This document shows, piece after piece, positions 5,389 through 10,191 of a stretch of DNA of 64,000 nucleotides. Position numbers and translations under genes: made by a program. The stretch covers positions 3,488,001 to 3,552,000 of the forward strand of contig OY762492.1 of the NCBI GenBank assembly GCA_963665845.2, read 5' to 3'. The stretch is from Candidatus Poribacteria bacterium (GTDB taxonomy: Bacteria > Poribacteria > WGA-4E > GCA-2687025). Each line of letters begins with the position of its first letter. Position 1 is the stretch's first letter. The notes below the pieces were generated by a model. It saw nothing but the letters and a program-made list of their open reading frames with translations, had not been told where the DNA came from and did no database searches.

Positions 5389-5563
5389 CGCTCCAACGCT
5401 CCTGCCCTACAACTGCGATCGCTAATAAGCATACCATACCAGATTGCGCTCTGAATAGAAAGCGCAACTCTTCGACGGCGGTACGCTGATGCGGTAAAAC
5501 GCGCGGGAATCCAGAGGCGCCGTAGAAACCATCCGCGTTCACCTGATGTCAAGAAAACGCGGT

Positions 5564-5591
5564 TTGACAACCCCCCAGCATCGTGTATAAT
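5564..5591 (+). promoter_or_regulatory. Sigma70-type promoter of the TPR-PIN-PIN operon
   Basis: TTGACA(5564)-16 nt-TATAAT(5586), both hexamers at consensus. Confidence 0.7.
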
Positions 5592-5640
5592 AATCTGACA
5601 GCGCGGCATAGCGCCGCATCGGTTGCGATTGGAGCGAAGC

Positions 5641-7647
5641 ATGGCTGAACGAAGCGAAATTCAGAGCGATCGATTTTTAGCGCATCTTACATCGCAGAGC
5701 ATTGTTGCGGACAGTGAATCCATCTTTCAGGGCGGTTTTCAACAACCGCAAATCATGGCGTTTTCAGTAGAATCTAACAGTCCCCTATTCACCTCGCTCA
5801 ATGAGGCTGTTGATCAAACACGGACTTCCTCTGATCAATCGAAAGGCTCCGGCGGCGCCGTTGAAGCGCAGCCTAAAGATCGGTCGGCTGCTCTGAACGA
5901 AATTGCAGATCCGAAACTTCGCGGAGCTCTGAATAGAGCGTTGAAATCGCAAGACGAAGCGGACGAAAAAGGCGTCAATAAAAAAACGCGCTACAGATTG
6001 CTGATGCAAGCAGTCGGGAACTACAGTGACGCTTTGGATTTGATGGCGCGACAGAACGAAGGCGAAAAAGACGTTGCGTTGGAATCGGCTATTCATAATG
6101 GCATTGGCGTCGCTTACGGGATTATTGGCCGTTCAGATGACGCAATTGACAGATTTGGCAAAGCCATCAAGATTGATCCCGACAATGCGATTGCCCACTA
6201 CAATTATGGCGTCGTTTGCATACAGAGCGGGAAGATTGACGCGGACGCATATCATAGCCTGGGCGTCGGTTCCATGTTACGCGGCAACGCCGACGAAGGC
6301 GTAAAAAATCTCAAAAAAGCGATTGATCTAGGCTCTAAGAACTCTGACACATTTTTGTATTTGGCTACCTATTATACACAAATTGGCGATCTTGATCAAA
6401 CTATAGCCTATCTTAAAAAAGCCGTTAATATTAGTCCAAAAGATGCAAAATTATATCACAGGTTAGGCATTGCGTATGGAGAATCGAAAAATCCGAACAA
6501 AGCAATTGAAAATTTTGAAATAGCCGTCAAAATTAATCCAAATGATGCGGGAATTTACTATAGTCTGGGTGTTGCTTACAGTCTGGTAGGCAATCGCAAG
6601 AAAGCGATTGAATATGGACATATGTCTATTGATCTCAATCCTGATTTTGCTGACGCTCTCTTTAACCTAGGGAATGAATACATAAGGGAAAGAGAATTCG
6701 ATACCGCAATAAAATATCTCAAAAGGGCTATTGAAAAAGGTCCTCGCCGCATAGACGCTTATATGAACCTGAGCTATGCGTATGAGAAAAGCAACAGATC
6801 TGAGGATGCAATTGAATGTTGCCTTAAGGCGCTTGCGATCAACCCCGAAAACATCGTTGCGCATCATAACCTAGGTATTGCGTATGCGAGAGCCGACAAC
6901 CTTGAAGCCGCCCTTGAAAGCAGTCTTCAAGCGATCCGAATGAAACCCGACTTCGCCGCCGCATATATGGGGCGCAGTTTCATCTATCTTATAAAAAGAG
7001 AACAGGACGAGGCAGCAGGTCAGCAGGACGAGGCAGCAGATCAGATGAATGAGGCAGCGGAAGACTTCGCTGTCGCGCTGTCGCTCAATCCAGAGCGGTA
7101 TCAGGAGTATGCCGACATATTTGCTGATGTTCTGCGGAAGATCGAAGAAGATGAAGCGCCCTGGAACGAGCTGCGCGCCGCGCTCATCCAGGCGCAGTCG
7201 GACGCGGAGCATGAACAGCCGGAGGGATGGACGACTCTCCTCAATAGCGCGTTGGAGGCGGTCGACAAGCTCGCCCCGCTGCGAAAAGACATACGCCGCC
7301 TCAACCGCGCGGCGAAATATTTGGCGGTAGAAGAATGCCGCGATGTCCGGACAGAGCTTGGATATGTCCTGAACGAGGCGCTGGATCGATTAGGCTCTCT
7401 AGCGGCGTTTCAGCGCGAGACGGCGCGGCATGCGCTTTCGATGGAAGCGTCGGGAGAAGAAAAAGATGGCTTTGCGGCGGCGCTGCTCCGGCTCAATCGG
7501 TCGCTGGACGCCATAAAGATTGAGGAGGTCAACGATGATTTTCTGAAAATTCGGGCAGATAATTCGATGCAAACCCTCCGCTATCTGCAGACCCGTATCA
7601 AAACGGGCGGGCGAAAGTTCACATGGGAAGAAGCGAATGAGCGTTGA
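5641..7647 (+). CDS. Multi-TPR protein with a C-terminal VapB-like antitoxin tail
   Basis: About 9-10 TPR motifs (e.g. AHYNYG, ALFNLG, AHHNLGIAY..P); ends GGRKFTWEEANER and overlaps the PIN start; start codon uncertain (5623, 5641 or 5755). Confidence 0.85.
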   Translation: MAERSEIQSDRFLAHLTSQSIVADSESIFQGGFQQPQIMAFSVESNSPLFTSLNEAVDQTRTSSDQSKGSGGAVEAQPKDRSAALNEIADPKLRGALNRALKSQDEADEKGVNKKTRYRLLMQAVGNYSDALDLMARQNEGEKDVALESAIHNGIGVAYGIIGRSDDAIDRFGKAIKIDPDNAIAHYNYGVVCIQSGKIDADAYHSLGVGSMLRGNADEGVKNLKKAIDLGSKNSDTFLYLATYYTQIGDLDQTIAYLKKAVNISPKDAKLYHRLGIAYGESKNPNKAIENFEIAVKINPNDAGIYYSLGVAYSLVGNRKKAIEYGHMSIDLNPDFADALFNLGNEYIREREFDTAIKYLKRAIEKGPRRIDAYMNLSYAYEKSNRSEDAIECCLKALAINPENIVAHHNLGIAYARADNLEAALESSLQAIRMKPDFAAAYMGRSFIYLIKREQDEAAGQQDEAADQMNEAAEDFAVALSLNPERYQEYADIFADVLRKIEEDEAPWNELRAALIQAQSDAEHEQPEGWTTLLNSALEAVDKLAPLRKDIRRLNRAAKYLAVEECRDVRTELGYVLNEALDRLGSLAAFQRETARHALSMEASGEEKDGFAAALLRLNRSLDAIKIEEVNDDFLKIRADNSMQTLRYLQTRIKTGGRKFTWEEANER

Positions 7648-8101
7648 TGCGTTTATCGATACAAACGTCGTACTATACAAGTATGACCATAAGGATGCGT
7701 CTAAACAAAGAAAGGCGGACCGTCTCATCAAAAGCGCGGTCGAAAATAAAGACGCGTGCATCAACTATCAGGTCGTTCAGGAGACGCTGGCTGTTCTGTC
7801 GGGCGGAAAATTCAGAGCGCCTCTTAGAGAGCTGGAAGCGGAGCTGCGGGATACGTTGTTGCCGCTCTGGACGGCAAACCCTGCGCAAAATGCGACGCCG
7901 ACCCCAGACCTCTACCGCCGCGCCGCCGCTGTCATGGACAAGAGCGGCTACAGCTTTTATGACAGCGTTGTCATCGCCGGCGCTCTTGAAGCAGGCTGCA
8001 AAACGCTTTACACCGAAGATATGGAGGACGGACATCAACTCGAATCTGTAACGATTGTCAACCCGTTCAAAGAAGAGGAGAACGCGCATTCCAAATCCTG
8101 A
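7637..8101 (+). CDS. PIN-domain ribonuclease (VapC-like, COG5573 type) with intact active site
   Basis: FIDTN, QVVQE, SFYDS, LYTED and IVNPF motifs. Confidence 0.93.
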   Translation: MSVDAFIDTNVVLYKYDHKDASKQRKADRLIKSAVENKDACINYQVVQETLAVLSGGKFRAPLRELEAELRDTLLPLWTANPAQNATPTPDLYRRAAAVMDKSGYSFYDSVVIAGALEAGCKTLYTEDMEDGHQLESVTIVNPFKEEENAHSKS

Positions 8102-8585
8102 GAATGAAAAGAGCGCTAATCAAGGAGAACCGCCGCCCAAAGACGCGCCGATAAAGATCGAGTACATGATCGGCCCCGATGTCGTCGCAGCCGCCTTTGA
8201 CGATACGAACGGCAGGAGGCGTGGAATAGCGGAACAAATCATACAACGGGCGCTCAGCAACCAAAGCGGATGCGTCAGTTTCCAAGTCGTTCAAGAAACC
8301 CTCAACTGGCTTGACAAGAAACAAACGTTGCATCCAAGAGATCGCAACACTTATATGGAGACCGAGCTGATTCCCCTTTGGACGCAAAATCCTGTTTGGC
8401 AGAACCAGCCGACGCTGGACACATATCTGCGCGCTTTACAGATCCAAGACGCATACCAGCTGCATTTCTACGCTGGACTTCTTGTGAGCGGCGTCATCGA
8501 TGCAGGATGCCAAACGCTTTACTCGGGGATGTACGATTCTCGGCAGAAAATCGAGGGAGTGGACATCGTCAACCCGTTCAACTAA
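8055..8585 (+). CDS. Degenerate PIN-domain paralogue (pseudo-nuclease)
   Basis: Colinear with the upstream PIN (QVVQETL, PLWT.NP, AGC.TLY, IVNPF) but DTN>GPD, FYD>FYA, TED>SGM; start uncertain (TTG 8055 or ATG 8166). Confidence 0.8.
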   Translation: MSTRSKKRRTRIPNPENEKSANQGEPPPKDAPIKIEYMIGPDVVAAAFDDTNGRRRGIAEQIIQRALSNQSGCVSFQVVQETLNWLDKKQTLHPRDRNTYMETELIPLWTQNPVWQNQPTLDTYLRALQIQDAYQLHFYAGLLVSGVIDAGCQTLYSGMYDSRQKIEGVDIVNPFN

Positions 8586-8635
8586 AGAGGATGGGGCATG
8601 CTTGGTCAGAGCGTCGGCATTCGCAAGCCTCATGT

Positions 8636-8700
8636 CAATCTTTTCAATCTTGGAAATCCTAGTTCAGACCACAAACGCGGCGCCTAAGATTCCCGCGCGT
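8636..8700 (+). repeat. Half copy of palindromic family D plus a REP-A fragment
   Basis: AATCTTTTCAATCTTGGAAATCCTAGTTCAGAC matches the arms at 58390 and 62980. Confidence 0.75.
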
Positions 8701-8758
8701 TTTACCTCAAGGGAGGAAACGACTTGCGCCGCCGCCCCGAAACATAGACAATGCGCCT

Positions 8759-9892: not shown

Positions 9893-9930
9893 CGCGGTTG
9901 ACGAACCAGAAAGCGTCCGCGCCACAATTC

Positions 9931-10165
9931 GTCATTCCCGCGCAAGCGGGAATCCAGAGGCGCCGCTGACGACGTCCGCATTCCCCGAAACCGTCATCCT
10001 ACCAAACGTCATTCCCGCGCAAGCGGGAATCCAGAGGCGCCGCAGACGGCATCCGCATTCGACGTCATTCCCGCGCAAGCGGGAATCTTAAGGCATCGCC
10101 GCCGCTCCCGTCCTTTTAAACCCCCCTAACCCCCCTTTCAAGGGGGAATCCAGAGGCGCCGCATT
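9931..10165 (+). repeat. BIME-like cluster: three REP-A (GTCATTCCCGCGCAAGCGGGAATC) plus one REP-B
   Basis: Copies at 9931, 10008 and 10064; ATTCCC-N8-GGGAAT palindrome; lies between convergent genes. Confidence 0.9.
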
Positions 10166-10191
10166 CGCCGAAACCGTCATTCTACCCGCTG

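Follow-up and report, generated by a model that had tools for sequence, protein, structure and literature searches.

A TPR-headed putative antitoxin, encoded ahead of one intact and one degenerate PIN gene, belongs to a head-swapping family

Organization of the Cassette

We analyzed a three-gene cassette within a 64,000-nt stretch of bacterial DNA (the window) from genome G000, of which C1 is a contig; G001 denotes a genome of the same genus. A tetratricopeptide-repeat (TPR) protein ending in an antitoxin-like tail (P0001) is followed by two genes of the PIN family, an arrangement suggestive of a toxin–antitoxin module with a candidate sensor head. The three open reading frames (ORFs) encode 668 aa (5641–7647), 154 aa (7637–8101), and up to 176 aa (8055–8585), and the first two overlap by 11 nt (ATGAGCGTTGA). 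The locus sits between housekeeping genes, labeled hemL and ribD from their translations without a family scan. Its features, in window coordinates, are listed below.

5564–5591, + strand: sigma-70-type promoter TTGACA-16-TATAAT, 12 of 12 consensus matches
5641–7647, + strand: TPR-antitoxin fusion gene (P0001), 668 aa, ending in MQTLRYLQTRIKTGGRKFTWEEANER before the stop
5641–5883, + strand: residues 1–81, starting MAERS as in stand-alone antitoxins; predicted local-distance difference test (pLDDT) score of the model below 50
5911–7086, + strand: residues ~91–482, about 11 helical hairpins (TPR; Pfam TPR_1, E 4e-45, 7 stretches; structure model)
7159–7173, + strand: PWNEL junction (W[DN]EL), where a TPR head joins either antitoxin module, with DNA microhomology
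7159–7551, + strand: residues 507–637, lineage-specific helical domain of the long antitoxin, 56–67% identical to six stand-alone genes
7552–7644, + strand: residues 638–668, antitoxin tail, predicted PIN-binding element (profile E 5.4e-7)
7637–8101, + strand: PIN1 (P0002), PcrIIC1-related PIN family, acidic active-site residues intact (PF01850, E 9e-10, above the curated cutoff)
8055–8585, + strand: PIN2 (P0003), active-site columns G/E/A/G/M versus D/E/D/E/D, frame kept in relatives (PIN1-family profile)
5490–5546, no strand: left dispersed fragment resembling repetitive extragenic palindromic (REP) repeats, 265 blastn hits genome-wide at E ≤ 1e-5
8614–8723, no strand: right dispersed REP-like repeat fragment, 178 blastn hits genome-wide

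An earlier sequence-only reading of this DNA had placed one consensus promoter before the cassette and REP fragments on both sides, and both observations stand: The perfect promoter has six copies in G000, the window's being one, and a control stretch put through the same repeat search gave a single genome hit. Its description of three overlapping genes holds for the first pair and is conditional for the second, because PIN2 has three candidate starts: TTG at 8055, which gives a 47-nt overlap with PIN1, ATT at 8088, and the nonoverlapping ATG at 8166, where the orthologues start. A GAGGAG within 8075–8090 lies 7 nt upstream of the in-frame ATT, a possible nonstandard start, and the codon aligned to the family's usual ATG is ATA at 8151.

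The fusion is neither a one-off nor an assembly join, as the further fusions described below and independent contigs establish. Run X4 contains a single contig over 5497–8665, and run X5, from a separate study, a contig across the TPR/helical junction (6902–7346); each shows 0 differences from the window, which rules out a join or frameshift artefact. Since X2 and X4 come from one study, possibly the source of the genome itself, runs X5 to X8 constitute the independent support.

Within P0001, the order is TPR region, helical domain, tail. Residues 1–81 are probably disordered in the model, and the TPR middle is low in GC (32–43%) and allelically variable. No strongly hydrophobic segment was found in the protein, and neither Pfam/NCBIfam scans nor the structure model revealed a recognizable effector domain; for the helical domain or the tail, Pfam and NCBIfam returned nothing meaningful. 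In the full-length model, the helical bundle is followed by a low-confidence stretch comprising the final few residues.

A PIN-Type Antitoxin Tail Without Its DNA-Binding Half

To place the tail, we used the best 80 of 474 confirmed loci of PIN1 relatives, drawn from many phyla. An ORF lies upstream of the PIN gene at every one of them, typically encoding 74 aa; under a picking rule that favored ORFs ending in NER, it ends in [NH][EAD]R at 70 loci and overlaps the PIN gene by 11 nt at 71, as the earlier reading had described for this family. A profile of 70 such partners, searched against 58,028 G000 ORFs, gave seven matches (E 2e-8 to 3e-6), the next ORF scoring E 0.3. P0001 is among the seven (E 5.4e-7), its last 31 residues aligning with profile positions 45–75, which bears out the proposed homology between its tail and the small partners. 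Profile positions 1–44, the N-terminal DNA-binding part, have no counterpart in P0001.

Family matches of the small partners themselves are all weak (best E 7e-4; 19 of 31 to DUF6364, 3 to FitA-like ribbon–helix–helix [RHH] proteins, and 3 to VapB), so the antitoxin label depends on their position, size, and operator. The operator motif, GTGTAC/GTACAC/GTGCAC, was picked after viewing the same loci; of the 80 loci, 56 have a standard start, and 54 of these ordinary leaders contain the motif, against 3 of 56 background stretches. None of the seven long-antitoxin leaders of G000, the window's included, contains it. The combined loss of DNA-binding N terminus and operator suggests that the P0001 operon would be expressed constitutively.

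One of the 80 loci (L046:627-3417) carries a 794-aa helicase-like protein, which we take to be DUF1998-type, with the same tail, an 11-nt PIN overlap, and no RHH-like start. The tail has therefore been captured by large proteins more than once.

The Long Antitoxin Exists Without a TPR Head

Residues 507–668 of P0001 constitute a gene family in their own right. G000 carries six stand-alone copies of ~180 aa lacking a TPR region, 56–67% identical, each followed by a PIN gene and lying in two tandem arrays (C1:1.674–1.680 Mb and 3.609–3.612 Mb). The P0001 leader is homologous to the leaders of these stand-alone genes and to that of one antitoxin gene of the TPR–ParE type described below. The sequence-only reading had proposed that a TPR sensor replaced the antitoxin's DNA-binding domain. 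The RHH-like N terminus is indeed lost, but what took its place is the ~130-aa helical domain; direct replacement by TPRs is rejected, as the helical domain intervenes and exists TPR-free in six copies.

The helical part is modeled as a helical bundle (pLDDT 83) and appears confined to this group. A search against 1.84 billion representatives returned eight hits and no convincing relative beyond the long antitoxins: four true members (E ≤ 2e-40) and four weaker, uninspected multistretch matches to long proteins. Foldseek with the domain model yielded generic bundles only and nothing at E ≤ 0.001, and no usable match to residues 500–640 was found in the ESM Atlas.

As assembled, the six paralogous PINs comprise two intact genes, one cut short, and three frameshifted in A-rich runs. 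At L011:7558-10131 (C1:3609557-3612130), all three array PINs are frameshifted in the assembly (+2, −1, −1), two of them at one site. One long-antitoxin array lies inside a locus with type III restriction–modification (R-M) and SNF2-helicase genes. A gene for a four-helix bundle (Pfam 23S_rRNA_IVP, E 1e-39) at L010:10573-10986 (C1:1678572-1678985) occupies another frame within a fully open 1,060-aa type III methyltransferase ORF and is apparently a nested overlapping gene.

Heads Vary and Are Exchanged at a Fixed Junction

Variation between alleles concentrates in the head, with tail and toxin conserved. Allele P0151 (637 aa) and P0001 have the same last 170 residues; identity between them falls to 36, 28, and 34% in successive 50-aa bins over residues 151–300. 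The PIN1 and PIN2 proteins on a 16,404-bp ENA contig, inferred to be that of P0151, are 99% identical to those of the window. A depth-2 contig in run X2 carries TPR-region pieces spaced +48 nt and −42 nt relative to the window, equal to the 16-aa insertion and 14-aa deletion of P0151, alongside the window allele at depth 18–19. Diversifying pressure on a sensor would produce this picture; so would free recombination of repeat arrays.

The same type of head also occurs on an unrelated antitoxin. G000 encodes 12 TPR proteins with a ParE-type tail (W[DE]E...EA.E....GKT.P). A ParE-like ORF comes next in 8 cases, in one of them as a weak and split match, and all nine ParE-like profile hits in the genome, at eight loci, lie behind a TPR-fused antitoxin. 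G001 has 11 such fusions, with a clear partner in six, a split one in one, a weak one in one, and none in three. The ParE-type tail matches small antitoxins that precede ParE-like toxins in other genera; in a set of 524 ORFs, the two best matches scored E 1.6e-5 and 7.6e-3, and the rest were weaker.

Heads and tails join at W[DN]EL, with DNA microhomology, and two heads and two tails occur in all four possible pairings. Head a (MAVSASK) and head b (MAERS/MVKR..RFLAHL) are each found on both tails: on ParE tails at C1:1680518 and C1:3608159, and on PIN tails in P0130 (whose head is 82% identical to head a across 131 aligned positions) and in P0133/P0001 (head b). The P0001 gene has its promoter and 5′ end in common with the gene at C1:3608159 (76% over 164 nt). 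Head swapping at W[DN]EL thus spans two toxin families. At L155 (G001 C26:173500-176250), three TPR-antitoxin/ParE pairs, part of the G001 set, stand in tandem. Their heads are near-identical, whereas their tails and toxins have diverged, the reverse of the P0001/P0151 pattern.

Fusion to the long antitoxin seems to have recurred. P0152 bears a head on a third long-antitoxin clade (91–96% to the stand-alone P0132/P0134), and the supported P0001 clade does not include P0130; together they suggest at least three independent fusion events (the P0001 group, P0130, and P0152), from a tree made unreliable by recombination. TPR-fused tails have in common a codiverged FTWEEANER end. The idea of a one-off fusion is accordingly rejected, and because the head is exchangeable and also sits on ParE-type antitoxins, the unit of interest is a head-swapping family and not a fixed TPR–PIN–PIN trio.

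Chimeras of this kind might also arise and persist without acquiring any function. Gene order at C1:3608159-3609567 is TPR-antitoxin, ParE, long antitoxin, PIN, so that one deletion between two W[DN]EL sites would yield the window's layout. On this account, recombination at the junction within leader-sharing tandem arrays deletes the ParE gene, and the product is tolerated; the dispersed repeats at the cassette flanks, and the end of G001 synteny at both of its edges, fit such a history. It accounts for the origin of the PIN version but not for the retention of 12 and 11 divergent TPR–ParE fusions in two species, and the apparent recurrence of long-antitoxin fusion and the codiverged FTWEEANER end also count against it; we consider it very unlikely.

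In family relatives (genomes G004 and G005, loci L163-L168), ParE-like toxins are preceded by ORFs of ~160–500 aa (stop to stop) with E[ED]GGF-like ends that are not recognizably TPR. Large antitoxin-like partners may therefore be a family-wide trait.

One Intact and One Degenerate PIN

The contrast between the two PIN genes drawn by the sequence-only reading is confirmed at the level of residues: PIN1 retains D8, E49, D109, E127, and D128, and PIN2 only the equivalent of E49. The PIN2 orthologue P0138 likewise has G, E, A, G, and M at these positions, as do P0146 and P0147. PIN2 has no Pfam hit; it matches the PIN1-family profile at E 1.2e-51 (PIN2 itself contributed 1 of the 50 rows), retrieves named PIN proteins (E 7e-20), and is 34% identical to PIN1. 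PIN1 and PIN2 are unlikely to be a single fusion gene that a stop codon split recently, since P0004, P0005, P0006, and P0135 all have the NAHS[KR]S stop.

The PIN1 frame and active site are kept in three other studies, and the PIN2 frame is retained in X6 (a sponge metagenome), X7, and X8. Ratios of nonsynonymous to synonymous polymorphism (pN/pS) were computed from 40 listed differences (71 further ones left out; 3 outside genes dropped). PIN1 shows 7 synonymous and 7 nonsynonymous changes (pN/pS 0.29, P = 0.02) and the PIN2 core 8 and 11 (0.38, P = 0.04); the 66 nt ahead of that core, with 1 and 3, are uninformative. For PIN2, this amounts to weak evidence of maintenance as a protein.

These data bear on a second alternative, in which the helical domain and TPRs merely provide a large, stable antitoxin, the toxin is permanently neutralized and then decays, and the head senses nothing. 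Such domestication would fit the missing operator and DNA-binding domain, the broken state of four of the six paralogous PINs, the TPR antitoxins that have no toxin, and the long non-TPR N termini ahead of ParE-like toxins in G004 and G005. It sits poorly with the retention of PIN1's frame and active site, with pN/pS below 1, with the mostly intact ParE partners, and with allele replacement limited to the TPR middle, which would be unexpected for a mere stabilizer. We judge it unlikely.

The PIN-family profile has a sole match in the PDB, PcrIIC1 (8wmm, E 1.4e-14). In the available text of the sources, PcrIIC1 and CbCas9 assemble into a heterotetramer, and PcrIIC1 is predicted to contact CbCas9 at its C-terminal helix (PMC13153721, PMC12669027). 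By analogy, a barely toxic PIN dimer (PIN1/PIN1 or PIN1/PIN2) could dimerize or scaffold the tail-bearing TPR protein, which would be the real worker. Retention of the catalytically dead PIN2 is compatible with such an adaptor, as is the helicase-like protein bearing the same tail ahead of a PIN at 1 of the 80 loci. Yet the TPR protein has no recognizable effector domain, the same heads also occur on ParE-type antitoxins, and neither the tail nor the small-partner profile has a sequence match in Cas9 chains; the adaptor role appears quite improbable.

Genomic Context and Distribution

Upstream of hemL, the corresponding site in G001 (L131:9062-11104) holds other cargo, including a methyltransferase–HNH-like gene labeled from its sequence, and looks like a variable insertion spot. 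In the window, a type II DNA methyltransferase (996–2252, − strand; PADLOC E 1e-116) lies 3.3 kb from the cassette, and repeated GTCATTCCCGCGCAAGCGGGAATC palindromic elements cluster at 9930–10180, past ribD.

Searches for the family elsewhere gave little. The long antitoxin is found in G000 only: Three other genomes gave tail-only matches to ordinary small partners (two confirmed), and it was not found in JGI metagenome contigs or in viral contigs. A single-protein PIN1 scan of genome contigs found none, whereas an alignment-based scan did recover relatives. Neither tail occurs at any of 80 metagenome TPR loci retrieved with a TPR–ParE paralogue, and the ESM Atlas returned only generic TPR clusters for that paralogue. 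In PADLOC 2.0, P0001 drew hits of a generic TPR type plus a single weak one (E 1e-3), and PIN1, PIN2, and the long antitoxin received none.

The accessible literature, including PMC10910872, PMC13069673, PMC13092281, PMC10440598, and 10.1101/2023.12.08.570793 and excluding subscription papers and supplements, yielded no TPR-fused antitoxin. For the lineage, under a presumptive name, together with toxin–antitoxin systems, the literature gave general sponge-microbiome papers only. To this extent, the architecture is undescribed, as the sequence-only reading had supposed.

A Proposed Sensor-Gated Module

Our best reading, which we hold at about even confidence, is a constitutive type II toxin–antitoxin module in which the tail neutralizes PIN1, an exchangeable TPR head acts as the sensor that gates it, and PIN2 dimerizes with it but is inactive. 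The toxin–antitoxin architecture itself we consider likely; sensing is the less certain step. In this scheme, PIN1 would be a toxic RNase that the C-terminal tail binds and inhibits, binding of a ligand to the TPR repeats would free PIN1, and the trigger would be a foreign, probably phage, protein; PIN2 would damp PIN1 by dimerizing with it. Allele variation and the R-M context of the paralogues are only indirect signs of phage-triggered defense.

Several observations weigh against the sensor-gated reading. The TPR head is dispensable for the module, because six long antitoxins lack one, and four of those six have PIN partners that are frameshifted or truncated in the assembly. Toxins are absent behind 4 of 12 TPR–ParE-type antitoxins in G000 and 3 of 11 in G001, where two more are broken or weak, and head size ranges from about 3 to 11 repeats. 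With a family profile built from G000/G001 members (E ≤ 1e-22, 24 candidates scored per genome), the TPR-antitoxin family appears in only 2 of 176 genomes of the phylum, its PIN version in G000 alone. The pN/pS P values (0.02 and 0.04) are marginal and come from a partial list of differences. As to the earlier suggestion of a defense operon, PADLOC assigned no known system, and the window locus is not a defense island. PcrIIC1, the closest PIN of known structure, has been described as partnering Cas9 and not as a released toxin.

A more speculative extension, tentative in our estimate, is that the genus possesses a combinatorial immune kit: At least a dozen allele-diversified TPR pattern-recognition heads, joined at W[DN]EL to PIN or ParE-like antitoxin tails, would each tie the release of their toxin to a ligand of their own, from phage or host, as a repertoire resembling nucleotide-binding leucine-rich repeat (NLR) receptors with the inactive PIN as rheostat.

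How type II toxin–antitoxin modules are triggered, and whether they defend, is a long-standing question. The family offers natural matched sets for it: the same tail and toxin with no head, a short one, or a long one; a pair of alleles that differ in head but have identical tails and near-identical toxins; and one head on two unrelated toxins. The role of an accessory antitoxin domain in trigger choice is therefore directly testable by swaps. If the sensor-gated reading is true, TPR-headed antitoxins would join the known sensor designs and provide a programmable ligand-to-toxin switch, within the limits set by the family's narrow distribution and by a lineage that is apparently uncultured.

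Comparison with Known Systems

The closest systems are the VapBC-type modules at the 80 loci with ~74-aa DUF6364/RHH-like partners, whose PINs are 40–49% identical to PIN1 and which have the GGRKFTxxExNER tail and 11-nt overlap in common with the window. Unlike them, the window operon lacks the RHH-like N terminus and the operator palindrome, and with these the classical feature of VapBC autoregulation; it carries instead the 130-aa helical domain and ~11 TPR hairpins, together with an additional inactive PIN. A parallel difference applies to the ParE-like (PF24732) toxins: In other genera of the class, they are paired with small antitoxins whose tails match the TPR–ParE paralogues, whereas all eight loci in G000 lie behind a TPR-fused antitoxin.

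PcrIIC1–CbCas9 resembles the cassette in PIN family (by profile) and, as far as its available description goes, in a large partner that engages the PIN through a C-terminal helix. The partner here is TPR/helical and has no enzyme domain, its tail has no Cas9 match, and no Cas9 or CRISPR link was seen.

Toxin–antitoxin defense gated by a sensor has established precedents. In CapRel (10.1101/2023.12.08.570793) and the toxin–antitoxin–chaperone (TAC) systems HigBAC/CmdTAC (10.1101/2024.02.24.581848), the antitoxin side is described, in the text available, as sensing a phage protein and freeing a translation toxin, and the sensor and warhead of TAC as modular (10.1101/2024.02.24.581848). Those systems use a toxin-fused domain or a SecB-like chaperone as sensor, in contrast to the putative TPR sensor carried here by the antitoxin; the third gene of TAC encodes that chaperone, and the third gene of the window a degenerate PIN. 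The Panacea multidomain antitoxins come nearest in design: One accessory domain, sensory by hypothesis, is joined to different neutralizing elements for unrelated toxins (PMC10440598, main text). The window family differs in that its accessory domain is TPR, which that main text mentions 0 times, and in being lineage-restricted and variable between alleles.

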